Shown piece after piece: positions 665 to 15,328 of a DNA stretch of 23,489 bases. Made by a program: the position numbers and the translations under genes. The stretch is from Cardiobacteriaceae bacterium (GTDB lineage: Bacteria > Pseudomonadota > Gammaproteobacteria > Cardiobacteriales > Cardiobacteriaceae). The first letter of the stretch is position 1, and each line of letters begins with the position of its first letter. The notes below the pieces were generated by a model. It saw only the letters and a program-made list of their open reading frames with translations. It did no database searches and was not told the origin of the DNA. Location: NCBI GenBank assembly GCA_030532785.1, contig JAUNKJ010000012.1, positions 1 through 23,489 of the forward strand. The letters run 5' to 3'.

Positions 665-3634
665 ATGCCGCCTCTTTTCCCTCGTCATTGCGCCATGTCC
701 TCCCCGATCTCCCCCCTGATCACCAAATTTCTCGACGCGCTTGCCGCGCGCGGTTTTCGTGGCGATATTGCCGCCACCCCCGGCGAACGCGCGGTCTATG
801 CCACCGACAATTCGATTTATTTCCGCCTGCCGCAGGCCGCCGTTTTCCCGCGCGATCATGCGGATGTGGTGTTGCTGATGACCCTGCTCGGCGAAGACGA
901 TTTTCGCGGCGTGCATATCGCCGCGCGCGGCGGCGGTACGGGAACGAATGGCCAATCGCTCACCGACGGCATCGTCGTCGATCTGTCGCGTTACATGCAC
1001 CGCATTGTCGCCATCGACCCGGAAAAGCGCACCGCCACGGTAGAGGCGGGCGTGGTCAAGGATCAGCTGAACGCCGCACTCAAGGCGCACGGCCTCTTTT
1101 TCGCGCCCGAGCTGTCCACCTCGAACCGCGCCACCATCGGCGGCATGATCAACACCGACGCCAGCGGCCAGGGGAGCTGCACCTACGGCAAAACGCGGCA
1201 TCATGTCCTCGCCCTGCACACGGTGCTCGCAGGCGGCGAGACGCTGGTTTCCGAAGCGCTTGCCCGCCACGATTGGCAGGAAAAAATCCGCGACAAACCC
1301 CCGGCGCAACAAGCGTTCTATCACGCGCTTTATCGCCTCGCCGATGAGCATCGCGAAGTCATCGCCAACGCCTTCCCGCCGCTCAACCGCTCGCTCACCG
1401 GCTACGATCTGCCCCATTTGCTCGATGAGAATACCTTCAATATCAACAGTGTCCTTTGCGGCGCGGAAGGCTCGCTCGGCATCGTCACCCAGGCGACGCT
1501 CAATCTCCTGCCCATTCCCAAGCATCGCGCGCTGGTCAATATCGGCTACGCCGATTTCATGGCGGCGCTCTCTGACGCGCGCACCCTGATGGCGCGCAAG
1601 CCGCTCTCCATCGAAACCGTGGATGCCACGGTACTCGCGCTCGCGCAAAACGACATCGTCTGGCAAAGCGTCGCCGACTATTTCCCGGCGGAAGTCGCGG
1701 GCATCAACCTCGTTGAATTCAATGCCGAGAGCGAAGCCGCGCTGCAAGATATTCTCGCTGCTTTTCGCGAACATCTGAAAAATGATCAAAGTGTTGCCCG
1801 GCTGTCGATGACCGAAGCGCATGGCGCACAAGCCATCAACGCGGTGTACAACATGCGCAAGCGCGCCGTGGGGCTTTTGGGCAACGTGCAGGGCGAAGCG
1901 CGGCCGCAGCCCTTTGTGGAAGACACCGCCGTACCGCCGGAACATCTCCCGGAATTTATTGCGGAATTTCGCGCCATTCTCGACCGGCGCGGGCTTGCCT
2001 ACGGCATGTTCGGCCATGTCGACGCGGGCGTCTTGCATGTGCGCCCGACGCTGGACATGAAAGACCCGCAAAGCGCGGAAAAAGTCAAAGACATCAGCGA
2101 CGAAGTCGCGGCGCTGACGCGGCGCTACGGCGGCGTGCTTTGGGGCGAACACGGCAAGGGACTCAGATCCGCCTACGCCCCCGATTTTTTCGGCGACGCC
2201 TACCCGCTCGCGCAACAGGTCAAAGCGCTCTTCGACCCGCACAACCAGTTGAATCCGGGGAAAATTGCCACCCCCGACGCCAGCGCTTTGACCGGCCTCA
2301 CCGACGTCCATTTGCGCGGCAGCCGCGACCGCGCCATCGCCGCCCAAGACTGGCAAGCCTTCGGTGCCGCCATGCACTGCAACGGCAACGGTGCCTGTTT
2401 CAACTACGATTTTCTTGATCCCATGTGTCCCTCGTGGAAAGCCACCCGCGACCGCCGCCACTCGCCCAAAGGCCGCGCGACGCTGATCAAAGAATGGCTG
2501 ATGCAACCCCCGCCCGCGCCGCGACTCTGGAAAGGCAAGGCGCAAGGCCTTGATTTGGAAGTCTATGAGGCGCTGCACGGCTGCCTCTCCTGCAAATCAT
2601 GCAGCGGCCAATGCCCGGTGAAAGTCGACATCCCCGACAGCAAGGCGCGTTTCCTCGAACGCCACCACCACCGCTACCGCCGCCCCTTGCGCGACCATGT
2701 CATCGCCAACCTCGAACACCTCCTGCCGCGCCTCGCCTTCGCCGCGCCGCTCTACAACGCCATCCAGGGCAGCCGCCCCATGCGCGCCCTGCACCGCCGC
2801 CTCCTCGGACTCGTCGACGCCCCGCTCTTCGCCCGCAACGTCGAACTCCCCGCCGTCAACCTCCTGACAAGCCCGGCACAACTCGTTGACATCGAAAAGG
2901 AAAACAGCATCATCCTCGTGCAGGACGCCTTCACCCGCCACTTCGACACCGCCGTGTGGCGCGACTGGCTCCTCCTCCTGCAAGCGCTCGGCGTCAACGT
3001 CTGCGTCCTCCCCTACGTTCCCAGCGGCAAACCATTGCACGTCCACGGCTTCCTCAAACGCTTCGCCAAAACCGCCGAACGCAACCGCGCGCGCTTCGCC
3101 GAATACGCACAAAGCGGCATCGCGCTGGTCGGCCTCGACCCCGCCATCACATTGATATACCGCGACGAATACCGCAAAGACTACGGCCACGCGAAAAGCG
3201 ACCGCGACGACTGGCACATCCTCCTGCCCCAGGAATGGCTCGCGCAATGGCTGGCAAAACAACCGCCCCGCCCCACAAGCAACACCGCGCCGTACTACCT
3301 TGCCGCGCACTGCATGGAAAAAACGCAAATGAACGGCAGCGCGAAAGCCTGGCAACGCATCTTCGCCCACTTCGGGCTGGAACTGCATGAAATCGCCAGC
3401 GGCTGCTGCGGCATGTCCGGCACCTACGGCCACGAAGCCGAACACCTCGGCCTCTCGAAAACCCTCTACGCGCAATCGTGGCAAACGCCCGTCGGCGAAC
3501 ACGGCGAGCGCCTCCTCGCCACCGGCTACTCCTGCCGCAGCCAGGCAAAACGCGTGGACGGGCAAACCCTCGCCCATCCCCTGCAAGCGTTATTGCAGGA
3601 AATATACAAAAATAGTGATTTTTTACCATCATGA
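665..3634 (+). CDS. Fused FAD-linked oxidase / 4Fe-4S + CCG-domain oxidoreductase. A GlcD-like N-terminus is joined to a GlcF-like C-terminus, giving a YdiJ-like D-2-hydroxyacid dehydrogenase architecture
   Basis: 989-aa ORF. FAD_binding_4-type motif RGGGTGTNGQS...GIVVDL near the N-terminus. Ferredoxin-like CLSCKSCSGQCP (C-x2-C-x2-C-x3-CP) at about aa 640. CCG-type cysteine motif CCGMSGTYGHE near the C-terminus. The true start may be ATG 695 (MSSPISP...) rather than 665, since ATG 665 lies inside a TACAAT -10-like hexamer. The last 9 codons and the TGA stop (3632-3634) lie inside repeat copy B. Confidence 0.8.
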   Translation: MPPLFPRHCAMSSPISPLITKFLDALAARGFRGDIAATPGERAVYATDNSIYFRLPQAAVFPRDHADVVLLMTLLGEDDFRGVHIAARGGGTGTNGQSLTDGIVVDLSRYMHRIVAIDPEKRTATVEAGVVKDQLNAALKAHGLFFAPELSTSNRATIGGMINTDASGQGSCTYGKTRHHVLALHTVLAGGETLVSEALARHDWQEKIRDKPPAQQAFYHALYRLADEHREVIANAFPPLNRSLTGYDLPHLLDENTFNINSVLCGAEGSLGIVTQATLNLLPIPKHRALVNIGYADFMAALSDARTLMARKPLSIETVDATVLALAQNDIVWQSVADYFPAEVAGINLVEFNAESEAALQDILAAFREHLKNDQSVARLSMTEAHGAQAINAVYNMRKRAVGLLGNVQGEARPQPFVEDTAVPPEHLPEFIAEFRAILDRRGLAYGMFGHVDAGVLHVRPTLDMKDPQSAEKVKDISDEVAALTRRYGGVLWGEHGKGLRSAYAPDFFGDAYPLAQQVKALFDPHNQLNPGKIATPDASALTGLTDVHLRGSRDRAIAAQDWQAFGAAMHCNGNGACFNYDFLDPMCPSWKATRDRRHSPKGRATLIKEWLMQPPPAPRLWKGKAQGLDLEVYEALHGCLSCKSCSGQCPVKVDIPDSKARFLERHHHRYRRPLRDHVIANLEHLLPRLAFAAPLYNAIQGSRPMRALHRRLLGLVDAPLFARNVELPAVNLLTSPAQLVDIEKENSIILVQDAFTRHFDTAVWRDWLLLLQALGVNVCVLPYVPSGKPLHVHGFLKRFAKTAERNRARFAEYAQSGIALVGLDPAITLIYRDEYRKDYGHAKSDRDDWHILLPQEWLAQWLAKQPPRPTSNTAPYYLAAHCMEKTQMNGSAKAWQRIFAHFGLELHEIASGCCGMSGTYGHEAEHLGLSKTLYAQSWQTPVGEHGERLLATGYSCRSQAKRVDGQTLAHPLQALLQEIYKNSDFLPS

Positions 3635-3698
3635 AGCGCTTACCGTGAGAAATTTTCTCATTATAAGCGCTTAGTGATGAGAAAATTTCTCATCATGA
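3608..3698. repeat. Copy B (long form) of the modular palindromic element
   Basis: AAAAATAGTGATTTTTTACCATCATGAAGCGCTTACCGTGAGAAATTTTCTCATTATAAGCGCTTAGTGATGAGAAAATTTCTCATCATG. It contains two AAGCGCTT cores and two GAGAAA(A)TTTCTCA palindromes. It overlaps the stop codon of the upstream oxidoreductase. Confidence 0.7.
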
Positions 3699-3714
3699 CC
3701 GAAGGATGGGCGTC

Positions 3715-3998
3715 AACCCACCTTTCGTAGGTTGGTGGTGCATCTCGACAGGCTCGATAACCATTGCAAGGTCGCTGCATTTCGACAGGCTCAATAACCA
3801 CTTGTCGAAGCTCCTTGCAATGAACTCCAACATGTGACGGCAATAGAAGCCGTAGGCTGGGTTAGTTGCGCAGCAACGTAACCCAGCAGAAATGGTCAAA
3901 TCGCGCTGGGTTACGGCTGCGCCTAACCCAGCCTACGGAAAATGTGCCACGGAAAACGTGCGGTGCGAATTGTCATGGTGGGCTGAAGCCCACCCTAC
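3715..3998. repeat. Cluster of GTAG-headed REP-like palindromic units (BIME-like mosaic) plus a 26-nt direct repeat
   Basis: CGTAGGTTGGTGGTGC (3727) and CGTAGGCTGGGTTAG (3853) on the + strand. The reverse complement carries CCGTAGGCTGGGTTAG (3920-3935) and GGTAGGGTGGGCTTCAGCCCACC (3976-3998). A perfect 16-bp inverted repeat CCGTAGGCTGGGTTAG / CTAACCCAGCCTACGG flanks about 55 nt and contains the nested inverted repeat GTAACCCAGC / GCTGGGTTAC. The direct repeat TGCATYTCGACAGGCTCRATAACCA occurs twice (3740-3766 and 3778-3804). The ...CAGCCTAC ends recall the E. coli REP terminus GGCCTAC. Confidence 0.6.
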
Positions 3999-4056
3999 CA
4001 TGCTTATCCTTGCTCAACCCATTGGCAAAACAGCCATAAAAAAATTTCCCCATATC

Positions 4057-4098
4057 ACATGTAATGCTCTTGCATTTTACATGTAACAAATCTACAGT
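4057..4098 (+). promoter_or_regulatory. Sigma70-like promoter (TTGCAT-17-TACAGT) with an overlapping operator-like inverted repeat ACATGTAA-N12-TTACATGT; predicted leaderless or near-leaderless transcript
   Basis: -35 TTGCAT at 4070-4075, a 17-nt spacer, -10 TACAGT at 4093-4098. The predicted TSS is about 4104-4106, at or 1-2 nt before ATG 4106, and there is no SD. The perfect 8-bp inverted repeat at 4057-4064 / 4077-4084 straddles the -35. Confidence 0.4.
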
Positions 4099-4105
4099 AG
4101 CGCCC

Positions 4106-4765
4106 ATGAACAAAAAGACTTCTGGAAAAACCGCCGCCAAGGCATCTGCCGCTAAAACTTCCGCCGACTATCAGCGCGCCTTTCGCCAGCGTTTGCGCGA
4201 ACAGGGCTTGAAGAAGCGGGAGGTCTGGATTCGTCCCGAGCATGAAAAGCTTCTGGGCGAGATTGAAGAACGCCTGCGGCATCCCGCCGCAGGCACTACG
4301 GGAGCAACGCTGATGGATATCCGCAAAGACAGTTGGCATACTGAAGCGCTTTATCAGGCGCTGGCCGCCGAGCCTTTTTTCACTGACGGACGCGCGACGC
4401 TGGAGCTGATTGACGGCCTGCATCCTTCGTTGCTCGTAGTGCTGCATGATTACGGCGATTTGCCCGTGTATCTCGGGCTGTCCGGGGCGCAGATCGTGGT
4501 GGAAGCGGTGTTGTGGCAGGCGTCTTTGGTGCGCGACAGCGCCGCGTTTCACGAGGCGGTACTCGCCACGCACAAGTATTTTCCGCTGTCCACCATCAGT
4601 CTGGAGCAGACGGCGGACGGCGAGGCATATTACGGCATGTTCGGTGCGCTGTTGGCAGCGTCATCGCTTGCCGATATTCTGGTGGAGATTGAAACGCTGG
4701 CGGCAAACGTCATCGAGGCGGCGGCGGCGTACCGCGACTTTTTGCACACGGGAGAAGAGGCATGA
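4106..4765 (+). CDS. DUF2170(YjfI)-like protein with a roughly 85-aa Lys/Ala-rich basic N-terminal extension. Family assignment tentative; it rests on gene-order analogy with E. coli yjfI-yjfJ
   Basis: ORF in the track starts at 4064, but the promoter analysis favours ATG 4106 (MNKKTSGKTAAKASAAKTSADYQRAFRQRLREQGLKKREVWIRPEHEKLL...). The stop TGA at 4763-4765 overlaps the ATG of the downstream PspA-like gene (ATGA). The N-terminus resembles histone-H1/AlgP-like AKA/KTA low-complexity tails. Confidence 0.55.
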   Translation: MNKKTSGKTAAKASAAKTSADYQRAFRQRLREQGLKKREVWIRPEHEKLLGEIEERLRHPAAGTTGATLMDIRKDSWHTEALYQALAAEPFFTDGRATLELIDGLHPSLLVVLHDYGDLPVYLGLSGAQIVVEAVLWQASLVRDSAAFHEAVLATHKYFPLSTISLEQTADGEAYYGMFGALLAASSLADILVEIETLAANVIEAAAAYRDFLHTGEEA

Positions 4766-5451
4766 CCATGTGGGGAAAATTGATGACCGCGTTGCGCGGT
4801 GGGGTACACGAAACGGGCGAGGCGCTGATGGATAGCCAGGCGCTGCGCATTCTCGAGCAGGAAATCCGCGAGGCCACTGCGGAAGTGCAGCGTGCGAAGG
4901 ACAGCCTGGTGGAAGTGATGGCGCAGCAGAAGCTTGCCGAGGGGCGCGCAGGGCAGGTTGCGGAAAAAATCATGGAATATGAGGGCTATGCCTTGCAGGC
5001 GCTCGACAAGGACGAGGAAACGCTGGCGCACGAAGTGGCGGCACGCATTGCCGCGCTGGAGGCGGAAAAGGGCGAGCATGACGCGCTTGCTGGGCAATAC
5101 CGCCACGCCGTCCGTGCTTTGCAGGCCACGATTCAGGAGAGCGAGCAGCATTTGCGCCGCATCCGTCAACAGGCCGATACGGTGAAGGCCACGGCGCATG
5201 TGCAAAAGGCGCAGGCGGCGGTGGCGGAGCGCTTCGGTTCGTCGCAATCGAAGATGCACAATGCGATGGAATCGCTGGCGCGCATTAGGGAACGGCAGAT
5301 GGAAGACGCGATGCGTCTCGAGGTTTCGGGGGAATTGGCGCGCGCCGGCAGCGATGCGGCGCTGGAGGCAAAATTGCGCGATGCCGGGATTGGTGGCAAG
5401 GGCAATACCGATACGCAAGCGATATTGGAACGATTGAAGGCAAAAAAATGA
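4762..5451 (+). CDS. PspA/IM30 (phage-shock protein A / Vipp1, ESCRT-III-like) family protein, YjfJ-like
   Basis: 229-aa all-helical coiled-coil protein (MTMWGKLMTALRGGVHETGEALMDSQALRILEQEIREATAEVQRAKDSLVEVMAQQKLAEGRAGQVAEKIMEYEGYALQAL...) with the characteristic PspA N-terminal amphipathic region and heptad pattern. It is translationally coupled to the upstream gene. The TGA stop (5449-5451) lies inside repeat copy G. Confidence 0.75.
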   Translation: MTMWGKLMTALRGGVHETGEALMDSQALRILEQEIREATAEVQRAKDSLVEVMAQQKLAEGRAGQVAEKIMEYEGYALQALDKDEETLAHEVAARIAALEAEKGEHDALAGQYRHAVRALQATIQESEQHLRRIRQQADTVKATAHVQKAQAAVAERFGSSQSKMHNAMESLARIRERQMEDAMRLEVSGELARAGSDAALEAKLRDAGIGGKGNTDTQAILERLKAKK

Positions 5452-5512
5452 GAAATTTTTGCACACCAAGCGCTTTGTGAGGGTAAAAAATGATTATTTT
5501 GAGTGATAGTAT
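5447..5512. repeat. Copy G (partial, divergent) of the modular palindromic element
   Basis: AAAAAAATGAGAAATTTTTGCACACCAAGCGCTTTGTGAGGGTAAAAAATGATTATTTTGAGTGATAGTAT. It carries the AAGCGCTT core, a GGTAAAAAA flank and a terminal GATAGTAT (ATAGTG head inverted). Confidence 0.5.
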
Positions 5513-5561
5513 GACTTCGTCGGTGTTGTCGTGATAACCCTATAAGATGAAAGGCTATTAT

Positions 5562-5683
5562 CCTCCCCTGCTTGCGGGGGAGGGACAGGGTAGGGGGAAA
5601 CGAGGTTTTCCACTTTATTGCCTCAAAAGAATGCTATGCGTTTGACACCCCCATCCCAACCTTTCCCCGTAAGCAGGGGAAGG
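5562..5683 (+). promoter_or_regulatory. Structured intergenic leader upstream of the yqiJ-like gene: two C-rich/G-rich hairpins, a G-quadruplex-capable G-run motif and a long-range 9-nt inverted repeat
   Basis: Hairpin 1 CCTCCCCTGCTTGCGGGGGAGG (5562-5584). G-run motif GGGGGAGGGACAGGGTAGGGGG (5576-5597). Hairpin 2 CTTTCCCCGTAAGCAGGGGAAGG (5661-5683). TTGCCTCAA (5618-5626) pairs with TTGAGGCAA (5690-5698). The function (terminator, attenuator or sRNA) is unknown. Confidence 0.35.
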
Positions 5684-5760
5684 AGTGGATTGAGGCAAAA
5701 CGAAACATCAATGCCAATAGCTGTACTTCTCCTTCAATTGAGACTGGCAAAGGAACAACC

Positions 5761-6399
5761 ATGGAAACCTTTTTCTACACGGCGTTTACCTTCCCCACGG
5801 CGGTGCCGACATTTTTGCTGATGCTCGCCGTACTCTTCTGGCTGGTGTCGCTTTTGGGTCTCATCGATGCCGACAGTCTGCTCGATGGCCTTGACGGCGG
5901 CGACGGCAACTTTGCCGAAAGCGGCGGGCTGCCCGCAGCACTCCTCTGGCGCTTCCGCCTGATCGGCTATCCGATCACGCTGACCCTGACCGTGGTGGCG
6001 CTCTTTGCCTGGTGGCTGTGCTATTACGCGATGTTTTTCCTCACGCCGCTGTTGCCGTGGCCATGGCTGCGTTATCCCGTGGGCATCGCCCTGTTGCCGC
6101 TCGCGTTTTACGCCGCCGCGTGGCTCGCGGGCAAGGCGCTGCTGCCGCTGCGGCCGCTCTTTGTGCAAAAGGAAACGCGGGCGCAGGGTTTTGTCGGGAA
6201 AACGGCAGTGGTGCGCACCTCTGCCGTCGACGAGCATTTCGGCGAGGCGACGCTTGACGACGGCGGCGCGGGGCTGATTGTCCAGGTGCGCAGCCGCACG
6301 CCGCTCGATGCCGGGACGCGTGTGGTGCTGCTCGAATTCGATGCCCAGGATCATGTGTATTATGTGATGGCAGAACAGGAATTTTTTGCAAAGGAGTAA
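5761..6399 (+). CDS. YqiJ-like (DUF1449 / NfeD-type) inner-membrane protein; predicted partner of the downstream flotillin
   Basis: Start at ATG 5761 (METFFYTAFTFPTAVPTFLLMLAVLFWLVSLLGL...), preceded by AAAGGAACAACC. The ORF in the track, starting at 5572, runs through the structured leader and is rejected. The protein has several N-terminal TM helices and a C-terminal soluble OB-fold-like segment (GFVGKTAVVRTSAVDEHFGEATLDDGGAGLIVQVRS...VVLLEFDAQDHVYYV), as in NfeD/YqiJ proteins. The TAA stop (6397-6399) sits inside the SD of the next gene. Confidence 0.65.
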   Translation: METFFYTAFTFPTAVPTFLLMLAVLFWLVSLLGLIDADSLLDGLDGGDGNFAESGGLPAALLWRFRLIGYPITLTLTVVALFAWWLCYYAMFFLTPLLPWPWLRYPVGIALLPLAFYAAAWLAGKALLPLRPLFVQKETRAQGFVGKTAVVRTSAVDEHFGEATLDDGGAGLIVQVRSRTPLDAGTRVVLLEFDAQDHVYYVMAEQEFFAKE

Positions 6400-6403
6400 C
6401 ACG

Positions 6404-8287
6404 ATGATGGAAATGATATTACCGGTCGCGACCGGCGCGGCGATTGTGCTGGCAGTGCTGATTTGCGTGGCGCTGCTGTTCAAGGCCTTCTATTACAAAG
6501 TCAATCAGGGCACCGCCCTGATCGTCAATGATCTCAGCCGCACGCCCAAGGTGCATTTCACCGGCGCATTTGTCTACCCGGTGATCTACCGCAAGGAATT
6601 GATGAATATCTCATTGATTACCATGGAAATCGACCGGCGCGGCAAGGACGGCCTCATCTGCGCCGACAATATGCGCGCCGATATTACCGTCGCCTTCTAT
6701 CTGCGCGTCAACGAAACCGCCGAAGATGTGCTGAAAGTCGCCAAATCCGTGGGCGCGGGGCGCGCCTCCGACAAAGACGCCGTCAACGACCTCTTCAACG
6801 CCAAATTCTCCGAAGCGCTGAAAACCGTGGGCAAACAGATTGAATTCGTCAAACTCTTTGAAAACCGGCAGGATTTCCGCGACAAAATCATCCGCGTCAT
6901 CGGCAATGATCTGAACGGCTACATCTTGGAAGACGTCGCCATCGACTACCTCGAACAAACGCCGAAAAGCTCGCTCGACCCCAACAACATCCTCGACGCC
7001 GAAGGCATCCGCAAAATCACCGAACTCACCGCGCAGCAAAACATCCGCACCAATATGCTCGCCCGCGATGAAGAACTCGCCATCACCAAGAAAAACGTGG
7101 AAACGCGCGAAGCCATGCTCGAACTCGAACGCCAGCAAGCCGACGCCGAAGCCAAACAGCAGCGCGAAATCGCGAGCATCCGCGCCCGCGAAGAAGCCGA
7201 AGCACGCAAAGTGCAGGAAGAAGAACGCAAAAAAGGGGAAATGGCGCACATCCTCGCCGAGCAGGAACTCGCCGTCATGCGCGAAAACCAGCAGCGCGAA
7301 GTAGACGTCGCCGCGCAAAACCGCGAACGCGCCGTCGCCGTGGAAATCGAAAAAGTCAACCGCGCAAGGGCGCTGGAAATCGTCTCGCGCGAACGCGAAG
7401 TGGAACTGCACCGCATCGAAGCGGAAAAAGCCGTGGAAGTGCAGAAACAGGAAATCGCCAACGTCATCCGCGAGCGCATCAGCGTCGACAAAACCGTCGC
7501 CATCGAAGAAGAACGCATCAAGGAAGTGCGCGAAGTGGCGGAAGCCGACCGCGCCAAACAAGTGCGCATCCTCGAAGCCGAAGCGCGCGCCGAAGAAGAA
7601 AAAGTCCGCGCCATCAAAGCCGCCGAAGCCGAAGAACAAAGCGCCAAACACCGCGCGGTGGAAATCACCACCATCGCCCAGGCGCGCCTCGACGCCGCCG
7701 CCAAAGACGCCGACGCCAAGAAAAAACTCGCCGAAGGCACCCAGGCCGAACAGGCCGCCTTTGGCCTCGCCGCCGCCCGCGTCCAGGAAGCGCAAGCCAT
7801 TGCCAGCGAAAAACAGGGCATGGCGGAAGCGAACATCATCCGCGCCAAAGGCGAAGCACAGGCGCAGGCCGAGCGCGACATCGGCATGGCACAAGCCGAG
7901 ATCACCCGTGAACAATTCCGCGCCGAAGCCGATGGTTTGACAGAAAAATTCGGCGCGATGGACACCATGAGCGCGGAATCCCGCGCGCACGAGGAATACC
8001 GCATGCGCCTCGACAACGCGCTGAAAGAAAGCCTCGCCGCCATCGCCGCCGGACAGGAAATCGCCCAGGAAAACGCGCGCATCCTCGCGATAGCACTCGA
8101 AAAAGCGAAAATCGACATCGTCGGCGGCGAACAGCACTTCTTCGACACCTTCGCCAAATCACTCTCGCTCGGCAAATCCATCGACGGCCTCATCGGCAAA
8201 AGCGACATCGCCAGCAGCGTCATCCAGCAATTGCTGGGCAGGGACGCGCTGCCGGAGCGGCATGACGAACAAAACAGTGGGGGATAA
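6404..8287 (+). CDS. Flotillin / band-7 (SPFH) family protein, YqiK-like, with a long Glu/Ala/Arg/Lys-rich coiled coil
   Basis: AAGGAG at 6391-6396 lies 7 nt upstream of ATG 6404 (MMEMILPVATGAAIVLAVLICVALLFKAFYYKVNQGTALIVND...). It has an N-terminal TM anchor, then an SPFH core (ADITVAFYLRVNETAEDVLKVAKSVG...), then an EA-repeat coiled coil of about 300 aa (7050-7950), as in bacterial flotillins. Gene order with the upstream NfeD-type gene matches E. coli yqiJ-yqiK. Confidence 0.8.
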   Translation: MMEMILPVATGAAIVLAVLICVALLFKAFYYKVNQGTALIVNDLSRTPKVHFTGAFVYPVIYRKELMNISLITMEIDRRGKDGLICADNMRADITVAFYLRVNETAEDVLKVAKSVGAGRASDKDAVNDLFNAKFSEALKTVGKQIEFVKLFENRQDFRDKIIRVIGNDLNGYILEDVAIDYLEQTPKSSLDPNNILDAEGIRKITELTAQQNIRTNMLARDEELAITKKNVETREAMLELERQQADAEAKQQREIASIRAREEAEARKVQEEERKKGEMAHILAEQELAVMRENQQREVDVAAQNRERAVAVEIEKVNRARALEIVSREREVELHRIEAEKAVEVQKQEIANVIRERISVDKTVAIEEERIKEVREVAEADRAKQVRILEAEARAEEEKVRAIKAAEAEEQSAKHRAVEITTIAQARLDAAAKDADAKKKLAEGTQAEQAAFGLAAARVQEAQAIASEKQGMAEANIIRAKGEAQAQAERDIGMAQAEITREQFRAEADGLTEKFGAMDTMSAESRAHEEYRMRLDNALKESLAAIAAGQEIAQENARILAIALEKAKIDIVGGEQHFFDTFAKSLSLGKSIDGLIGKSDIASSVIQQLLGRDALPERHDEQNSGG

Positions 8288-8290
8288 GCC

Positions 8291-8554
8291 ATGGATATCA
8301 CGACCATTGATTTGCACGATGCAGAAAAACAGCTCGTGCAATTGGTGCAGAAAGTCAGCCGTTCGGGCAAACCAATCGTGATTGCCGAAGATGGCAAATC
8401 TTTGGTGCAGATCGCGCCGCTTGCGGAAAAAAACCGCAAACCGATTTGGGGCTTTATGCAAGGGCAAATCACCGTGCCGGATGATTTTGATGACATGGAA
8501 GCGGAGACGATCGCGGCCATGTTTGCCGGAGAGGATGATGAAGATTCTCTTTGA
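8291..8554 (+). CDS. Type II antitoxin, Phd/YefM (VapB-like) family
   Basis: 87 aa. MDITTIDLHDAEKQLVQLVQKVSRSGKPIVIAEDGKSLVQIAPL...KPIWGFMQGQITVPDDFDDMEAETIAAMFAGE. The C-terminal G.M.G.I.IPDDFD...F segment is typical of antitoxins paired with PIN toxins. Its 3' end overlaps the toxin start. Confidence 0.75.
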   Translation: MDITTIDLHDAEKQLVQLVQKVSRSGKPIVIAEDGKSLVQIAPLAEKNRKPIWGFMQGQITVPDDFDDMEAETIAAMFAGEDDEDSL

Positions 8555-8933
8555 TACCCATGTCCTTTTATGGATTGCGCTGGATCAGAAAGAAAAATTT
8601 TCCCGGAAAAGCCTGGCCTTGCTTGAAAACGCAGATCAGGATTTTTATGTGAGCGTGGCGAGTATTTGGGAAATTGCGATCAAGGCATCGTTGCAGAAAA
8701 CGGATTTCCAGATTGACCCTCGGCAGATGGTATTCCAGATGCAGGAGGCGGGAATCCATTTGCTGCCCATTGCATGCGAGCATATTTTTCATCTTGCGCA
8801 ATTGCCATCCATTCATCGCGATCCTTTTGACCGCCTGCTGCTGGCGCAAGCGGAAACGGAAAAGATGTATTTGATGACCGCCGACAGTAAATTGTTGCAG
8901 TACGCAAGCGCTTGGGTCATCGCGGCGGGATAG
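8535..8933 (+). CDS. vapC: VapC-type PIN-domain ribonuclease toxin
   Basis: Start at ATG 8535/8538 (MMKILFDTHVLLWIALDQ...), overlapping the antitoxin stop (8552-8554) by about 20 nt. The track ORF 8382-8933 begins inside the antitoxin and is not used. PIN acidic residues appear in the expected context (FDTHVLLW; SVASIWEIAIK; DPFDRLLLAQAE; LMTAD). Confidence 0.8.
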   Translation: MMKILFDTHVLLWIALDQKEKFSRKSLALLENADQDFYVSVASIWEIAIKASLQKTDFQIDPRQMVFQMQEAGIHLLPIACEHIFHLAQLPSIHRDPFDRLLLAQAETEKMYLMTADSKLLQYASAWVIAAG

Positions 8934-8965
8934 AATGAACCAGGTATATGTACCGTTCTTTTTTT

Positions 8966-9051
8966 GGTGAGAAAATTTCTCATGTATAAGCGCTTTGCGC
9001 GAGAAAATTTCTCACCATAAGCGCTTAATGATGGTAAAAAAACCACTATTT
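8966..9051. repeat. Copy C (long form, inverted orientation) of the modular palindromic element
   Basis: TGGTGAGAAAATTTCTCATGTATAAGCGCTTTGCGCGAGAAAATTTCTCACCATAAGCGCTTAATGATGGTAAAAAAACCACTATTT, the reverse complement of the ATAGTGGTTTTTTTACC...AAGCGCTT...GAGAAAATTTCTC arrangement. It is followed directly by the SD and ATG of the ankyrin gene. Confidence 0.7.
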
Positions 9052-9062
9052 CAAGGATAAAT

Positions 9063-9800
9063 ATGAAAAAATATACAAAAACCGGCAAAGCCCTGTGGTT
9101 ATCCCTGCTCTGCGCGCTGAACCTCGCCCACGCCACGGACGATGCGCAGGCGGAAAAACTGCACGAGATGTCGCGTGCGGCGAAGGCGGGCGATGTGGCA
9201 GCGTTGCAGACGCTCGCGGGCACGCCGCCGGATCAGGCACTTTATGCGCGTCTCTTGTGCCGCAGCATCGCCGCGGACAATTTCCGCGCGTTTGTCGCCC
9301 TGCTCGATGCCGGTGCCGATGCCGGCTATGGCGAGCGCGGCGTGCGTGATCCCGGGATACACTGCGCCGTGTTGCCGCCCGCGCTTCGAGCGCGCTATCT
9401 CGAAGAACTGTTGCGGCGTGGCGTGGACGTGAACACGCGCAATACCCTGGGGGAAACCCCGCTGCACAGCGCGCTGGGGCTGACGAAAAAGCCGTTCGTC
9501 CAGATCGAGATGGTCGACATGCTGCTCGCGGCAGGCGCGGACATCCACGCCCGCGACAAATACGGCAAGACCGTGCTGTTCAAGGCCATCGTCGGCGGCA
9601 ATCCGCACCGCGACTGGGTGATGTATTTTCTCGAAAAAGGCGTGGACCCGCAGGCGAGAAGCGATATGGGTTACACCTTCCAGTTCAACTATCTCTACAG
9701 CACCCGCGAAATGAAAGGCGAGGGGAAACGCCGCCGCGACAAAGTCAGACAATGGCTTAGCGAACGCGGCATACCGCTGGAAAGTGATGCAAAAAAATAA
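9063..9800 (+). CDS. Secreted (Sec signal peptide) ankyrin-repeat protein
   Basis: MKKYTKTGKALWLSLLCALNLAHA|TDD... signal peptide with an AxA site. There are at least three ANK repeats (e.g. GETPLHSALGLTKKPFVQIEMVDMLLAAGADIHARDKYGKTVLFKAIVGG). RBS AAGGA sits 7-10 nt upstream. The stop TAA 9798-9800 immediately precedes repeat copy D. Confidence 0.75.
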   Translation: MKKYTKTGKALWLSLLCALNLAHATDDAQAEKLHEMSRAAKAGDVAALQTLAGTPPDQALYARLLCRSIAADNFRAFVALLDAGADAGYGERGVRDPGIHCAVLPPALRARYLEELLRRGVDVNTRNTLGETPLHSALGLTKKPFVQIEMVDMLLAAGADIHARDKYGKTVLFKAIVGGNPHRDWVMYFLEKGVDPQARSDMGYTFQFNYLYSTREMKGEGKRRRDKVRQWLSERGIPLESDAKK

Positions 9801-9804
9801 CCAT

Positions 9805-9860
9805 TTATAGTGATTTTTTACCACCACAAGCGCTTCACGATGGTAAAAACATACTATATT
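9805..9860. repeat. Copy D (short form) of the modular palindromic element
   Basis: TTATAGTGATTTTTTACCACCACAAGCGCTTCACGATGGTAAAAACATACTATAT, a roughly 50-bp palindrome ATAGT...TTTTTTACCA...AAGCGCTT...TGGTAAAAA...ACTAT. Confidence 0.65.
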
Positions 9861-9878: not shown

Positions 9879-12800
9879 ATGACCGATCTGCACAGCGAAA
9901 CCCTGGTCAATCAGGCGGTGGCCGAAGGCAGCGCCTACGCCATCATCCGCAAGCGTCTGGAGGAACAGGGCGCGCGCTTGCAGACCCTGACCCGTGCCTT
10001 GAACGAGGCGCGTACCGCGCATTTCGGCAGCACCGAGATGCGCGTCGTCGCCCGCATCCGCGTGCGCACCGAACACAATTGCATCGCCCGCGACATGGTG
10101 CAGCTCGGCGACACACTCCTCTTCGGCTACAACGTTTTCATGGGACTCAAGCCGGAAACGCATGTGGCAGACGTCTTCGCCCTGTTTGCGCTGGAGGTGG
10201 CGGACGGGCAAACCACCATCCGCGAAGTGCCGCTCGCGGGCAGCTTCCTGCAAGACAGCCGCTTCACCAGCGATTTCGACGAACTCTACCGCTATTACAA
10301 GCACACCCGGCTCACCGAACTCACCGTGCGCGACGGCAAACTTCTGGCCGCCTTCCAGATCGGCGAACGCGCCGAAGACCGCCGCGTCTTCCGCTGGCAA
10401 TTGCGCCCCGACGGCACGCCGGATTACATCGACAACCGTGGCGAACGCGACATCGCGCTCCCCGAACCCTATGATTTCCTGTGGCATAGCGCCGGGCGCG
10501 AGCGCCTGAGCGAAGACGGCAGCCACCTCAACATCGCCGACACCCTGTTTGTCGCCACACGCGACGGCACCCTCACCCTGCGCATGGAAGACAACACCCA
10601 AGGCGGGCAAACCCTGCTTGCGGAAACGCTTGCCGACCGCACCCAATCGCTCGCCGATCTCGACGCCGCATGGGCGGATGTCGACGGCCTGCTGCTCCTG
10701 CGCCTCACCCCCTACCGCGAAGCGCCGCGCCACTACATTTTCAACCGCCTCACCCAAGCGCTCACGCGCGAAGACAGCCTCGGCGACTCCTGCGTGCAGC
10801 TCCCGGAAGGCCACGGCATCCTCTACCCCGGCGGTTATGCCCTTGCAAGTGGCGAGATCAAAAACTACGACGAACCGCAGGGCATGACCTTCAAGCGCAA
10901 AATCCGCGCCCCCAACGGCGAAGACATGCTCTTCGTCTTCTACGCCCCGGCGCGCGGCGAATTTGCCCTCTACTCCTACAACCTCATCAGCAAAAGCCTG
11001 CAAAATCCGGTGTATGGCCACGGCTATGCGCTCTCGCCTTCCGGCGCGCTCACCATCTTCAGCGCCGAAGGCGAGCCGACGCGGGTGCATCCCATGCAAA
11101 TCTGGCAAACGCCCTATTGCAGCGACGAACACGCCGCCAACCAGCCGCAGGACGACGCCCCCTTCTCGCGCATCGGCAACCCCGATCTGGTGCGCGGCAT
11201 CTCCGACCTCTACAGCGTCGCCCGCCTCATCGGCGAACAGCAGGCCAGCCAGGCCGTCTACGAACGCCTGCAAAAACAGATACAAAAACTCTTTGACGAC
11301 TACTACTGGCTTGATGACGCCAGCCTCGCCGCCGAAGCAACGCTTGCGCCCTTTGCCGCCCTGCTGCGCGACATGGACGCCACCGCCGACAACGTCATCG
11401 ACGAATTTGAAAAAGCCGAAGCCATCCGCCGCGACGCCGCCCACGCGCTCGAACAGGCGCGCGAGGCGCAGCGCCAGTTGCAGCGCGACCTGCAACACGG
11501 GCAATGGGCAACCGTGGGCGAACACGCCCAGGCGCTCGCCCGCATCGGTGAAGCGCGCGGGCAGCTCGTCATGCTCGGCGAACGGCGCGGCATGGATACG
11601 GCAGCGCTTGGCGAACTGCAACAGGCGCTCGACGCCCTGCAGGCGCAGACCGGCGAGCGCACCGTCGCCTTCTTGCGCGACGCCAACGCCTTTGCCGCCT
11701 ACCACGACGCGCTGGCGCAACTGGCGGCGCAAATCGATGCCGCCGCCAAACGCAGCGATCTCGACGCCATCCTCGCCGACATCCAGCACAGCGCCGCCGG
11801 GCTGGATGAACTCTCGGCGCTGATGAACACGCTGGAGATTGAAGACGCCACCCTGCGCACCCGCATCATTGACGACATCTCCGCCGTCTACGCCCGCCTC
11901 AACCAGGAGCGCGCCCGCGCGCGCCACAAGGGGCAAGGCCTCGGCAGCGAAGAAGCCGCCGCGCAATTCGCCGCGCAAATGAAGCTGCTCACGCAAAGCC
12001 TCGGCAATGCGCTCGCCGACGTGCAAACCCCGGAGGACTGCGACGATGCGCTCGCGCGTCTCCTCGTGCAACTGGAAAATCTGGAAAGCCGCTTTGCTGA
12101 CGACGAACGCTTCCTTGCCGACCTCGCCGACAAGCGCGACGACCTGCACAGCGCGCTCACCGAACGCAAGCAGCAACTGCTCGAAGCGCGCGAACGCAAG
12201 GGGCAGCAACTCGCCGACGCCGGCTCGCGCATCCTCGACAACCTCGCGCGCCGCGCCCAGACCTTCAGCGACGTCGCCGCCTTCAACACCTGGCTTGCCA
12301 GCGATGCACTGGTGCAGAAAATCGCCCAACTCGGCAAAACCCTGCGCGAACAGGGCGACACCGTGCGCGCCGACGACCTCGACGCCCGCTTCAAGGCCAT
12401 CCGCGACCAGGCTATCCGCACCTTGCGCGACAAAAGCGAACTCTTTGACGGCGAACATCTCATCCGCTTCGGCCAATACCGCTTTTCCGTCAACAGCACA
12501 GCGCTCGACCTCGTCCTCCTGCCGCGCGAGGGCAAACTCTGCGCCCACCTCGCCGGTACCCAATATTTCCAGCCCATCGAACACCCCGAACTCGACGCCC
12601 TGCGCGACTACTGGGACATCAGCGTCCTCTCCGAAAGCGCCGCGCTCTACCGCAGCGAATATCTCGCGGCCGAAATGCTGCGCGCCGCCGTGCGCCGCGA
12701 ACAGGGCCTGACCCTCGAAGCGCTGGGGCAGGCGGTGCAAAGCCTGCCCGACTTGCAGGCGCTGGCAGCCGCCTTTGCCGCGCCGCGCTATCAGGAAGGC

Positions 12801-15164
12801 TATGAAAAAGGCATTCACGACCACGACGCCGCGCGCATCCTGCAAGCCGTCTTTCCCCTTTGGCAACACGCGGGCAGCCTGCGCTACCCGCCGAACGCGC
12901 GCGCCCTTGCCCAGCTTTACTGGGCAGAACACGCAGCGGATCATCCCGCGCTGGCCGTCGAAGCGCAGGCAGCGGCGCAGATGGCAGCGCGCTTTGCCCA
13001 CAGCGCCGCCAGCGATGCCCTCGTGGCCGAACTCGCGCCCGCGCTGCGTGCCTTTGCCGAGGGCGCACGCCTCGACAGCGCCGCAGCCGACGTGGCCGCC
13101 GCCTATCTCGTCGCCGAATGTGCGGCGGCGCAGCCCGCGTTTGTGGTGAGCCGTGCCGCGCGCGCGGCGCTTGAGCGCCTGCAACAGGCGCTGGGCGATG
13201 CCGACTGGCGCGCAGGGCAGGCGAACCTCGCCACCCTGGAAAGGCTTGCGCGTTACCGCCTCGCGCGCCATTGGCTCGCGAGCGTGCATGAAGCAGACAG
13301 CGCCTTTCTCGACGAAGCCGCCGCCGTGCTGGCGCTTGAGGGCGAGCTTGTGCATCAGGACAGCGCCGCCGACCTTGATTACCGCGTGGAAGGGCTGCTT
13401 GGCAGCCATCCGCGCCTCGACGGGCAAGCGCTGGCGGGCAGCGTCGACGATTTCCTCGCGCGCAGCCGGCATCACCGCGAGGTCGTCATTCCGGCAGTCG
13501 CGCGCTACCACGCCCTGCGCCAGCAAGTGGCGGCCGCAGAACGGCAGGCGCTCGATCTTGACAACCTCGTCGCGAGACCGCTCACGAGTTTCGTGCGCAA
13601 CCGCCTCATTCACGAACATTATCTGCCGCTGATCGGCGCCAACCTCGCCAAGCAGATGGGCGCGGCGGGCGAGGGCAAGCGCAGCGACCTCATGGGCTTG
13701 CTGCTGATGATCTCCCCGCCCGGCTACGGCAAAACCACGCTGATGGAATATGTCGCCAACCGCCTCGGTCTCGTCTTCATCAAAATCAACGGCCCCTCCC
13801 TCGGCCATGCGGTCACCGGCATCGACCCGGCGCAAGCGCCGGATGCCGCCGCGCGCGCCGAACTGGAGCGCCTGAACCTCGCGCTGGAAATGGGCGACAA
13901 CGTCATGCTCTATATCGACGACATCCAGCACACCCATCCCGCCTTCCTGCAGAAATTCATCCCGCTCTGCGACGCCACGCGGCGCATGGACGGCGTGTGG
14001 CGTGGCGAAGCGAAAACCTACGACCTGCGCGGGCGCAAATTCGCCGTGGTCATGGCGGGCAACCCCTACACCGAAAGCGGCGAAGCCTTCAACGTCCCCG
14101 ACATGCTTGCCAACCGCGCCGACATCTACAACCTCGGCGACATCATCGGCGACAGCGGCGAAGCGTTTGCACAAAGCTATCTGGAAAACGCGCTCACCTC
14201 GAACCCGGTACTCGCGCCGCTCGCGCTGCGCGACCCTGAAGACATCCGCCGCTTCATCCGCCTGGCGCAGGGGGAAACCGTCGCTGCCAGCGATTTTGTC
14301 CACCCCTACAGCGGCGCGGAAAGCGGGGAAATCGCCGCCGTCCTTGCGCGCATGATGCGCGTGCGCGATGTGGTGCTTGCCGTCAACCGCGCCTACATCG
14401 CCTCCGCCGCACAGGAAGACCGCTACCGCAGCGAGCCGCCCTTCCGCCTGCAAGGCAGCTACCGCAACATGAACAAAATGAGCGAAAAAATCTCCGCCGT
14501 CATGAACGACGCCGAACTGGAACAGCTCATCATCGACCACTACCAGGGCGAAGCGCAGCTCCTGAAAGACGGCGGCGAAGCCAACCTCCTCAAATTCGGC
14601 GAACTGCGCGGCACCTTGAGCGACGAAGAAAAAACGCGCTGGGACGACATCAAAACCGCCTTCCGCCGCCTGCAGGCGCTCGGCGGCAGCGACAGCGCCC
14701 AGGAAAAAATCGTCATCCAATTAAAAGGTTTGCACGACACCCTGCAACAAACCTTCGCGCAAATGGATCAAACGCTCGCCACCTTGGCACCGGCGCAAAG
14801 CGCGGCGCAGCAGCAAACGCTTGACGCCATCCGCCGCCTTACCGCAAGCATCGCCGCCATCGCCCCCAAAGAACTGCACATGCAGCAGGAAAACCTCGCC
14901 GCGATACGGCAACTGGCGGAAGGCGTACAGGCGATCAAGCCCACGGTCAACATCGCCGCGCCGCAGGAAGACGCATGGCTCGCGCGTTTCTCGGAAATGG
15001 TCAGCCGGCTGGAAGCGGGGCTGCAACCGGTGCTGGAACAACTGGGACGCAACCTCGACATGAACTACGTCTCCATCTACAAAATCAACCGCCTCGCCAA
15101 ACAGGTGGACAAACTCGCCGAACAGGAAGCAAAAGGCAATATTTCACAAAAACCGAAAAAATAG
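9879..15164 (+). CDS. Giant (1761 aa) uncharacterised protein with a single dynein/MoxR/McrB-type (AAA_5-like) ATPase module near the C-terminus, a long helical Ala/Leu/Gln/Arg/Glu/Asp-rich middle region and a distinct N-terminal domain of about 450 aa
   Basis: One uninterrupted ORF with strong GC3 codon bias. Walker A LLMISPPGYGKTTLMEY at nt 13713-13739. Walker B NVMLYIDDIQH around 13902-13931. Downstream lies KFAVVMAGNPYTESGEAFNVPDMLANRADIYNL, which matches the hhhATxNP...L..AhhsRF pattern of AAA_5. The N-terminal 450 aa are rich in Gly/Tyr/Pro (GHGILYPGGYALASGEIKNYDEPQG...VYGHGYALSPSGALTIFSAEGEP). Residues about 450-1250 are strongly helical with heptad-like repeats. There is no signal peptide or TM segment. 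The last two Lys codons and the TAG stop (15162-15164) come from repeat copy E. RBS AAAGGA lies upstream of ATG 9879. Confidence 0.85.
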   Translation: MTDLHSETLVNQAVAEGSAYAIIRKRLEEQGARLQTLTRALNEARTAHFGSTEMRVVARIRVRTEHNCIARDMVQLGDTLLFGYNVFMGLKPETHVADVFALFALEVADGQTTIREVPLAGSFLQDSRFTSDFDELYRYYKHTRLTELTVRDGKLLAAFQIGERAEDRRVFRWQLRPDGTPDYIDNRGERDIALPEPYDFLWHSAGRERLSEDGSHLNIADTLFVATRDGTLTLRMEDNTQGGQTLLAETLADRTQSLADLDAAWADVDGLLLLRLTPYREAPRHYIFNRLTQALTREDSLGDSCVQLPEGHGILYPGGYALASGEIKNYDEPQGMTFKRKIRAPNGEDMLFVFYAPARGEFALYSYNLISKSLQNPVYGHGYALSPSGALTIFSAEGEPTRVHPMQIWQTPYCSDEHAANQPQDDAPFSRIGNPDLVRGISDLYSVARLIGEQQASQAVYERLQKQIQKLFDDYYWLDDASLAAEATLAPFAALLRDMDATADNVIDEFEKAEAIRRDAAHALEQAREAQRQLQRDLQHGQWATVGEHAQALARIGEARGQLVMLGERRGMDTAALGELQQALDALQAQTGERTVAFLRDANAFAAYHDALAQLAAQIDAAAKRSDLDAILADIQHSAAGLDELSALMNTLEIEDATLRTRIIDDISAVYARLNQERARARHKGQGLGSEEAAAQFAAQMKLLTQSLGNALADVQTPEDCDDALARLLVQLENLESRFADDERFLADLADKRDDLHSALTERKQQLLEARERKGQQLADAGSRILDNLARRAQTFSDVAAFNTWLASDALVQKIAQLGKTLREQGDTVRADDLDARFKAIRDQAIRTLRDKSELFDGEHLIRFGQYRFSVNSTALDLVLLPREGKLCAHLAGTQYFQPIEHPELDALRDYWDISVLSESAALYRSEYLAAEMLRAAVRREQGLTLEALGQAVQSLPDLQALAAAFAAPRYQEGYEKGIHDHDAARILQAVFPLWQHAGSLRYPPNARALAQLYWAEHAADHPALAVEAQAAAQMAARFAHSAASDALVAELAPALRAFAEGARLDSAAADVAAAYLVAECAAAQPAFVVSRAARAALERLQQALGDADWRAGQANLATLERLARYRLARHWLASVHEADSAFLDEAAAVLALEGELVHQDSAADLDYRVEGLLGSHPRLDGQALAGSVDDFLARSRHHREVVIPAVARYHALRQQVAAAERQALDLDNLVARPLTSFVRNRLIHEHYLPLIGANLAKQMGAAGEGKRSDLMGLLLMISPPGYGKTTLMEYVANRLGLVFIKINGPSLGHAVTGIDPAQAPDAAARAELERLNLALEMGDNVMLYIDDIQHTHPAFLQKFIPLCDATRRMDGVWRGEAKTYDLRGRKFAVVMAGNPYTESGEAFNVPDMLANRADIYNLGDIIGDSGEAFAQSYLENALTSNPVLAPLALRDPEDIRRFIRLAQGETVAASDFVHPYSGAESGEIAAVLARMMRVRDVVLAVNRAYIASAAQEDRYRSEPPFRLQGSYRNMNKMSEKISAVMNDAELEQLIIDHYQGEAQLLKDGGEANLLKFGELRGTLSDEEKTRWDDIKTAFRRLQALGGSDSAQEKIVIQLKGLHDTLQQTFAQMDQTLATLAPAQSAAQQQTLDAIRRLTASIAAIAPKELHMQQENLAAIRQLAEGVQAIKPTVNIAAPQEDAWLARFSEMVSRLEAGLQPVLEQLGRNLDMNYVSIYKINRLAKQVDKLAEQEAKGNISQKPKK

Positions 15165-15240
15165 TGATTTTTTACCACCATGAAGCGCTTATCGCGAGAA
15201 AATTTTGCACGATAAGCGCTTCATGGTGAGAGAATTTACC
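15157..15240. repeat. Copy E (long form) of the modular palindromic element
   Basis: AAAAAATAGTGATTTTTTACCACCATGAAGCGCTTATCGCGAGAAAATTTTGCACGATAAGCGCTTCATGGTGAGAGAATTTACC. It contains a perfect 19-bp stem CACCATGAAGCGCTTATCG / CGATAAGCGCTTCATGGTG around a 13-nt loop. Confidence 0.7.
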
Positions 15241-15264: not shown

Positions 15265-15328
15265 GGTGGGCTGAAGCCCAGCCTACAAATCGCTGCGCGA
15301 TTCCCCCACCCCCGCAAGTGGGGGAGGG
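15265..15328. repeat. REP-like GTAG-headed unit plus a C-rich/G-rich hairpin, in the convergent gap between the giant ATPase gene and polA
   Basis: The reverse complement of 15271-15296 reads TGTAGGCTGGGCTTCAGCCCACC, the same family as 3976-3998. CCCCCACCCCCGCAAGTGGGGGAGGG (15300-15328) has the same stem type as hairpins 5562-5584 and 5661-5683. The hairpin lies just 3' of the polA stop on the minus strand, but no U-tract follows it. Confidence 0.55.

Follow-up and report, generated by a model that had tools for sequence, protein, structure and literature searches.

In Pseudomonas aeruginosa, a four-gene "biofilm-associated cluster", bac, was named by Macé et al. in 2008 (PA3732-PA3729; PMC2587700). 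Biofilm formation, swarming, rhamnolipid production and virulence all depend on its PspA homologue, PA3731 (PMC2587700). The cluster was extended in 2024 to bacABCDEF (PA3732-PA3727 / PA14_16140-16200), which forms one transcript by reverse transcription PCR (RT-PCR) in strain PA14 (PMC10948618). BacA, the product of the first gene, acts negatively: BacB to BacF are raised 6- to 13-fold in a bacA mutant (PMC10948618). The protein was crystallised as a CesT-like dimer, and a strong BacA-BacB interaction is cited as unpublished data (PMC10948618). The wider operon class, which joins a CesT/Tir-PspA pair to a Band-7/flotillin protein, YqiJ and an AAA+ ATPase, was described by Ravi et al. in 2024 (section 19 of PMC11237479). 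The abbreviated trio of YqiJ-like, flotillin-like and ATPase genes is more widespread than the full operon (PMC11237479). Here we describe a locus of this type in a Cardiobacteriaceae metagenome-assembled genome; the window analysed is the entire 23,489-nt contig JAUNKJ010000012.1. An earlier note on this DNA had assumed a betaproteobacterial host and had presented the genes at 4106-8287 as a membrane-stress "supercluster". The lineage is gammaproteobacterial, and the arrangement already carries the name bac (PMC2587700) and falls within a described operon class (PMC11237479).

The locus is very probably an instance of this known bac-type membrane-stress and membrane-remodelling operon. The cluster type is published, and the window holds a copy with lineage-specific insertions. 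Its first four genes match those of bac in order and family (BacA, the PspA protein BacB, the membrane protein BacC and the flotillin-like BacD), and a giant ATPase follows the four, as it does in Pseudomonas and Stutzerimonas relatives. The locus thus has a DUF2170/CesT first gene, an adjoining PspA gene, a YqiJ/YuaF-type protein with three transmembrane (TM) helices, a TM-SPFH-coiled-coil protein and a downstream giant ATPase. Compared with P. aeruginosa bac through protein matches and published descriptions, not its DNA, it differs in a 309-nt repeat-filled spacer between the PspA and YqiJ-like genes, in a VapBC pair and an ankyrin gene ahead of the ATPase, and in having no sixth gene. All five components of the class of Ravi et al. 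are present, and the trio alone also occurs among relatives; unlike that class, the window has no phospholipase D (PLD) gene, and the Flot C-terminal domain is not detected by Pfam. The operon is interrupted here at two junctions, PspA/YqiJ by repeats resembling repetitive extragenic palindromes (REP) and Flot/ATPase by VapBC and ankyrin genes.

More distant systems share parts of this arrangement. The yjfI-yjfJ genes of E. coli (within yjfIJKLMC) and yqiJ-yqiK belong to homologous families, with DUF2170 and PspA_IM30 common to both organisms. The two E. coli loci are unlinked and yqiK has no adjoining giant ATPase, whereas pairs of both types are joined here in one co-oriented string, as the earlier note had recognized. 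The pspA-ydjGHI and yuaFG (floT) genes of B. subtilis offer functional analogy rather than orthology: the partners YdjG and YdjH differ, and there is neither a DUF2170 protein nor a giant AAA+ ATPase.

The layout of the genes (Table 1) agrees with much of the earlier description. The open reading frame (ORF) list gives four co-oriented, contiguous ORFs on the plus strand (4106-4765, 4762-5451, 5761-6399 and 6404-8287). The first two overlap by 4 nt in an ATGA read from the sequence (gaggcATGAccatg, 4762-4765), the overlap that the earlier note took as translational coupling. A gap of 4 nt separates the YqiJ-like and flotillin-like genes, with AAGGAG 7 nt ahead of the ATG at 6404. The spacer between the pairs, given as 310 nt and highly structured, is 309 nt long (5452-5760), and its structure is confirmed by folding (-102 kcal/mol; z = -3.8, with 0/100 shuffles as stable). 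The reading of a single membrane module is the accepted one for such operons, and co-transcription is shown by RT-PCR in PA14 (PMC10948618). Where the description fails is at the boundary, since it closed the cluster at 8287 and set a separate VapBC, ankyrin and giant ATPase cassette downstream of it. The functional unit is five genes, because the ATPase (9879-15164) is conserved after the flotillin-like gene, while VapBC and the ankyrin gene are nearly unique to the window and are passengers. Past the ATPase comes a minus-strand polA in convergent orientation, and the window contains no sixth operon gene.

The first two proteins are assigned by standard profile hidden Markov models (HMMs). 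The 4106-4765 protein matches Pfam DUF2170 (3.4e-44; DUF2170/CesT-like domain at residues 77-213) and, at 263 bits, positions 3-204 of the 206-position NCBIfam BacA model, and its match to the BacA structure PDB 8Q8O (5e-35) is confined to residues 76-213. The 4762-5451 protein covers positions 2-217 of 220 of Pfam PspA_IM30 (3.6e-43). Of the HMM assignments proposed earlier, these two hold; the NfeD and SPFH (Band_7) calls fail with standard models, and those labels are rescued by remote homology. Searches of Pfam and NCBIfam as permissive as E <= 10 fail to match the YqiJ-like and flotillin-like proteins, so remote-homology and structural tests were needed, and PDB sequence and profile searches with both gave nothing meaningful. 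E. coli YqiK, by contrast, matches Pfam Band_7 and Flot, and E. coli YqiJ matches YqiJ_N and YqiJ_OB.

The YqiJ-like protein combines three TM helices with an OB-like beta domain at its C terminus, and its gene is paired with an SPFH gene, as is characteristic of the NfeD family. Single-sequence BLASTP against E. coli YqiJ was not significant and a family profile was required: a profile of 89 YqiJ-like members aligned with E. coli YqiJ by hhalign at 95% (E 4e-8), and 4/89 members make a weak contact with Pfam YqiJ_N. The family comprises ~2,185 clusters at 50% identity. The flotillin-like protein begins with a TM helix, continues with an SPFH region and has a long coiled coil rich in Glu, Ala and Lys. 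It matches E. coli YqiK from the TM helix through the Band_7 region by BLASTP (5e-46, 29% identity over 445 residues) and by hhalign (99.8%, E 2e-30). Its orthologues are 70% identical across the gammaproteobacteria and carry the name "YqiK" or "flotillin family" in JGI and NCBI annotation; the orthologue in Suttonella includes an N-terminal fragment with a recorded Band_7 match. Judged by these comparisons, the flotillin-like protein is a member of a divergent YqiK-like subfamily missed by Pfam models, because Band_7 and Flot fail while the homology to YqiK is significant. The NfeD and SPFH labels are thus supported by profile-profile and fold evidence only, not by standard HMMs.

The linkage is conserved in gammaproteobacteria and in the betaproteobacterium Delftia. 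A genome scan with the flotillin-like protein gave 34 loci, onto which all window proteins were mapped. The YqiJ-like and flotillin-like genes are adjacent in all 34 (median gap 38 nt), and of the 29 loci with room for the ATPase, 27 have it next after the flotillin-like gene (median gap 156 nt). At least 18 of the 34 have the DUF2170-PspA dyad immediately ahead in the same orientation, with a PspA-to-YqiJ gap of 36-87 nt in most loci (median 73 nt). These loci come from Reinekea, Zhongshania, Cellvibrionaceae, Oleispira, Agarilytica, Stutzerimonas, five Pseudomonas-group species, Methylococcales and Delftia. Elsewhere, a short-form dyad stands in divergent orientation (4/34; L009, L027, L029 and L031), its DUF2170 protein matching the C-terminal part of the BacA-like protein alone, or the dyad is missing from the flank (5/34).

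Among the Cardiobacteriaceae, Suttonella ornithocola shares the five genes and their order. Its flotillin-like gene is split after residue 181 (L039, 11977-20551 of UHIC01000001.1; also L040 and L028) by ~6.7 kb carrying Rep_trans, Phage_Coat_B and Zot genes of a filamentous prophage and an IS110 transposase, beyond which the gene resumes and the ATPase comes next. In two other relatives, an extra 278-residue Band_7 gene lies between the PspA and YqiJ-like genes (L042, 2737-3573; L038, 52-888), and L038 also has an SRPBCC gene between the flotillin-like gene and the ATPase (3492-3935). The PspA/YqiJ and Flot/ATPase junctions, the only two at which the closest relatives vary, are insertion hot spots in this clade, because close relatives carry different genes there. 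No trace of the extra Band_7 gene turned up in a tblastn search of the 309-nt spacer. Downstream of the ATPase, the next gene varies by taxon (YaeQ, rhomboid, zinc-ribbon, glutathione S-transferase, PLD or MscS-like; L019, L020, L022, L005, L003, L025 and L012), with PLD seen in L025 only, so a universal sixth "bacF" gene is not evident.

On the Pseudomonas megaplasmid pQBR103 (L043; NC_009444.1, 84437-97641), one co-oriented string fuses both E. coli-type gene sets. It runs from a long-form YjfI and PspA through a rhomboid protease, DUF2491, DUF350, DUF1190 and a glutathionylspermidine-synthase-like protein to YqiJ-like and SPFH proteins and a "DNA repair ATPase", the annotation given there to the counterpart of the giant ATPase. 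This is an even larger fusion, to which yjfKLMC genes of the E. coli type and a rhomboid gene also belong.

Upstream of the operon, the most consistent feature is a pair of operator-like palindromes. Two palindromes of the TTACATGTAA consensus precede every long-form DUF2170 gene, in the window and in 20 loci, with one variant (L017); the loci concerned are L002-L006, L012-L015, L019-L023, L026, L032, L033 and L039-L042, together with L043 at 11850-11930. In most, the two palindrome starts lie 49-52 and 26-29 nt ahead of the ATG, 22-24 bp from each other. They stand at 72 and 50 nt in L041 and L042 and at 42 and 29 nt (13 bp apart) in Delftia, and Agarilytica has three copies. The ACATGT cores are invariant in an alignment of 17 orthologous upstream regions. 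A loose form of the motif has 44 matches in 687 kb of loci, 38 of them within 120 nt upstream of long-form DUF2170 genes, where by our own calculation ~0.09 would be expected by chance. The motif is missing from loci with a short-form DUF2170 gene or none, and within the operon no gene but the first is preceded by the palindromes.

Between the palindromes, the orthologous loci have a TTGAC-like -35 element, followed by TAnnnT at 6-10 nt from the ATG; a Shine-Dalgarno sequence is absent. The corresponding hexamers of the window match 8/12 consensus positions, which is below the scan threshold. In most loci examined, this predicted sigma-70-type promoter would give a leaderless or near-leaderless mRNA. 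In the Cellvibrionaceae variant (L017, 3690-3757), an abutting TTACAGGTAA / TTACCTGTAA pair replaces TTACATGTAA, and the N-terminal domain of the BacA-like protein has I-N-Q-D instead of the otherwise conserved I-R-P-E. The two may be a co-varying operator and repressor, seen in this one locus.

The BacA-like protein itself has an additional domain at its N terminus. DUF2170 proteins of these operons are ~205-220 residues long, not ~140, and their first ~60 residues are the best conserved part, with the consensus K-[TS]-S-A-x-Y-Q-R-x-[FY]-R-x-R-L-R-E-Q-G-L-x-K-K-E-V-W-I-x-P-E. E. coli YjfI is presumably ~133 residues long and without this domain. In the window protein, the domain is basic and arginine-rich, spans about residues 17-60 and contains the motif SADYQRAFRQRLREQGLKKREVWIRPE; the BacA crystal construct 8Q8O (146 residues) does not include it. 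NCBIfam UrfF, "plasmid repression protein F", matches residues 16-63 and is found in 17 of 18 family members (E ~1e-5), and the "transcriptional regulator" family PHROG_536 gives a weak match (~1e-2) in 16 of the 18. Pfam and PDB profile searches on the domain found nothing significant, and tblastn against plasmids returned YjfI-family proteins only. The N-terminal region of the window protein (residues 1-75, 4106-4330) also carries a 13-residue low-complexity insertion, GKTAAKASAAKTS, that is not in relatives.

These observations modestly favour a model in which the BacA-like protein directly autorepresses the operon through the palindromes, in place of or in addition to sigma-54 control, and in which its CesT-like domain binds PspA, so that one protein would act as a partner-switch sensor. 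The BacA-like protein would repress the operon, as the P. aeruginosa bacA mutant suggests, by binding the two TTACATGTAA palindromes with its N-terminal domain. Expression could then be set by titration of BacA through PspA or by the release of BacA once PspA moves to damaged membrane. PspA is an ESCRT-III-fold polymer that would bind and seal the stressed inner membrane, an activity established for the family, not for this protein. By family analogy, the NfeD-like and flotillin-like pair would form a membrane-anchored SPFH scaffold, and the classical-clade AAA+ ATPase may remodel or disassemble polymers as Vps4 does with ESCRT-III, a role proposed by Ravi et al. but not demonstrated. The palindromes and the N-terminal domain appear unreported: Wallart et al. 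(PMC10948618) and Ravi et al. (PMC11237479) mention neither an N-terminal DNA-binding-like domain nor upstream palindromes, and literature searches on the TTACATGTAA motif and on UrfF gave nothing relevant.

Several points weigh against a bac-type operon that is controlled in this way. The NCBIfam BacA score of 263 lies below the equivalog cut-off of 300. The AlphaFold2 (AF2) model of the flotillin-like protein, with 30 close homologues, has a mean confidence (pLDDT) of 58 overall and below 50 at residues 29-200, the SPFH region, values too low to confirm the SPFH fold structurally. TamAB, and not the dyad, precedes the YqiJ-like gene in L036, a 90%-identical relative. Bac-type function and co-transcription in this organism are extended by analogy from other species, the RT-PCR coming from P. 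aeruginosa PA14. The spacer, with its -71 kcal/mol hairpin and REP-like copy, may punctuate transcription after PspA, and further REP-like copies (8965-9041 and 9807-9850) fall in the 1.6-kb insertion, so that uncoupling of the ATPase is possible in this genome. The DNA-binding role of the N-terminal domain is drawn from weak family matches (UrfF ~1e-5, PHROG_536 ~1e-2) and co-occurrence with the operators, not from a fold assignment. Furthermore, a sigma-54 promoter has been proposed for P. aeruginosa bacA (PMC2587700, PMC10948618).

The spacer proved to be filled with dispersed repeats. A REP-like repeat (AAGCGCTT ... GAGAAAWTTTCTCA) lies just past stop codons in most intergenic regions examined, and the spacer holds a degenerate half-copy of it. 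Other intergenic copies are at 553-600, 3612-3695, 8965-9041, 9807-9850, 15161-15230 and 20852-20906, and copies also occur in contigs of close relatives (L036-L038, L041 and L042). The well-preserved copies (folded over 3612-3700, 8960-9045, 15161-15235 and 20845-20910) fold to -26 to -37 kcal/mol and the 9801-9860 copy to -12.1 kcal/mol. The GC-rich hairpin of the spacer has a partial copy of one arm at 15305-15325. At gathering thresholds Rfam has no family in the window, and at E <= 1 it returns chance matches to microRNA precursors (long hairpins) and to one small RNA family, far below the gathering score. The structure of the spacer reflects these REP-like, or miniature inverted-repeat transposable element (MITE)-like, repeats, which recur across the window, and not a dedicated, locus-specific regulatory RNA; the repeats may still attenuate or stabilise the transcript. 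Elsewhere in the window, intergenic palindromes lie at 3845-3941, 3977-3998 and 15265-15286, including a perfect 16-nt inverted repeat (3850-3865 / 3923-3938), and a GGTGGGCTGAAGCCCACC hairpin is common to the operon upstream region and the ATPase/polA intergenic region.

The alternative that fares best, although we consider it unlikely, is that two independent units happen to be neighbours: an autoregulated DUF2170-PspA dyad and a YqiJ-like/flotillin/ATPase unit with its own promoter, which would share no transcript and need share no function. Here the spacer measures 309 nt against a median gap of 73 nt, a fourfold difference, and harbours the REP-like copy and the -71 kcal/mol hairpin; yet this hairpin has no U-tract behind it, and neither a U-tract terminator nor a sigma-70 consensus promoter was found in the spacer. 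The sigma-70 and terminator scans as such stayed at or below shuffle expectation and are uninformative. Among relatives, the trio stands without the dyad in L001, L004, L014, L024, L025 and L036 and beside the divergent short-form dyad in the four loci noted above, in line with its wider distribution (PMC11237479), and the operator palindromes precede the first gene only. Against this, the co-oriented adjacency recurs across several gammaproteobacterial orders and in a betaproteobacterium, with gaps mostly of 36-87 nt. Moreover, RT-PCR products span every junction in PA14, and BacB to BacF rise jointly when BacA is lost (PMC10948618).

Much less probable is a classical Psp regulon, with a sigma-54 promoter, a PspF-type enhancer-binding activator and PspA as the anti-activator. 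The sigma-54 site upstream of P. aeruginosa bacA was proposed from sequence (PMC2587700, PMC10948618), and in Pseudomonas-group loci TGGCGAAAA stands immediately before the first palindrome. In the window, however, the region upstream of 4106 has no match to the sigma-54 consensus (TGGCAC-N5-TTGCW, <=2 mismatches), and there is no PspF, PspB or PspC gene; the conserved upstream features are instead the two palindromes and the sigma-70-like hexamers.

The idea that VapBC, the ankyrin gene and the ATPase form a separate defence or toxin-antitoxin cassette, with the membrane module ending at 8287, is barely credible: VapBC is a bona fide PIN toxin-antitoxin pair and the ankyrin protein matches the PADLOC candidate model PDC-M72A at 2e-9, but the ATPase accompanies the flotillin-like gene in nearly all loci with room, VapBC and the ankyrin gene occur in one locus besides the window (L037), the SRPBCC gene of L038 at the same junction marks an insertion hot spot, and neither the ATPase, the flotillin-like protein nor the other core proteins match PADLOC.

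The VapBC-ankyrin insertion measures ~1.6 kb and places the ATPase 1591 nt downstream of the flotillin-like gene, compared with the median of 156 nt elsewhere. The VapB-like gene starts 3 nt past the flotillin stop (TAAgccATG, 8285-8293), with the same layout in the near relative L037, and at this 3-nt distance the toxin-antitoxin pair sits tightly in the operon, with no gap the size of a promoter. The VapB-like and VapC proteins are 83% and 85% identical to those of L037, and the ankyrin protein is 60% identical to the N-terminal part of a 452-residue ankyrin protein there. By eye, its N terminus looks like a signal peptide. The PADLOC scan of the core proteins found no defence system, with only chance or generic matches (a JetC coiled coil at 1e-3 and the ankyrin model). 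The giant ATPase matches Pfam DUF3686 at 9e-169, together with DUF7902 and AAA; its AAA module is of the classical clade, with Rix7/p97/Cdc48 as the nearest solved relatives, and a literature search on DUF3686 gave nothing relevant. On the minus strand, long ORFs across 6600-8500 appear to mirror the coding sequence of the Glu/Ala/Lys-rich coiled coil and are probably not genes.

Table 1. Positions of genes and sequence features of the bac-type locus and its surroundings in the 23,489-nt window.
Feature	Positions	Strand	Remarks
FAD/Fe-S oxidase	665-3634	+	
Operator-like palindrome 1 (TCACATGTAA)	4055-4064		51 nt ahead of ATG
Sigma-70-like promoter (predicted)	4070-4098	+	TTGCAT 4070-4075, 17-nt spacer, TACAGT 4093-4098; -10 ends 7 nt before ATG 4106
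Operator-like palindrome 2 (TTACATGTAA)	4077-4086		within promoter spacer
BacA-like (DUF2170/CesT-like)	4106-4765	+	219 aa; inside ORF 4064-4765
PspA/IM30-family	4762-5451	+	229 aa
Degenerate REP-like half-copy	5447-5500		AAGCGCTT ... GAGAAAWTTTCTCA; folds to -9.7 kcal/mol
GC-rich hairpin, 126 nt	5560-5685		33-nt arms 5564-5596 and 5648-5680, 51 nt between; -70.9 kcal/mol
YqiJ/NfeD-like membrane protein	5761-6399	+	212 aa; inside ORF 5572-6399
Flotillin/YqiK-like	6404-8287	+	627 aa; alternative TTG start at 6386
VapB/Phd-like antitoxin	8291-8554	+	87 aa; weak VapB and PhdYeFM matches
VapC PIN-domain toxin	8538-8933	+	Pfam PIN 5.8e-15
Ankyrin-repeat protein	9063-9800	+	Pfam Ank_2 and Ank_4
Giant AAA+ ATPase	9879-15164	+	1761 aa; DUF3686, DUF7902 and AAA

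The gene cluster itself adds little beyond extending a published operon class to the Cardiobacteriaceae, with two junctions that tolerate insertions and a corrected module boundary that takes in the AAA+ ATPase and leaves out VapBC and the ankyrin gene. It also exposes a blind spot of Pfam, which covers a YqiK-like subfamily with >7,900 relatives and an NfeD-like partner of ~2,200 clusters at 50% identity. What the locus offers in addition is a testable regulatory hypothesis for the bac system, whose control is now attributed to sigma-54 and an undefined "chaperone/regulator" role of BacA. If the slightly favoured model of autorepression holds, the BacA-like sensor would couple the polymer state of PspA to transcription and would be a counterpart, by analogy, of PspF-PspA in E. 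coli. The hypothesis gains its relevance from the effects of the bac system on biofilm formation, swarming and virulence in P. aeruginosa.

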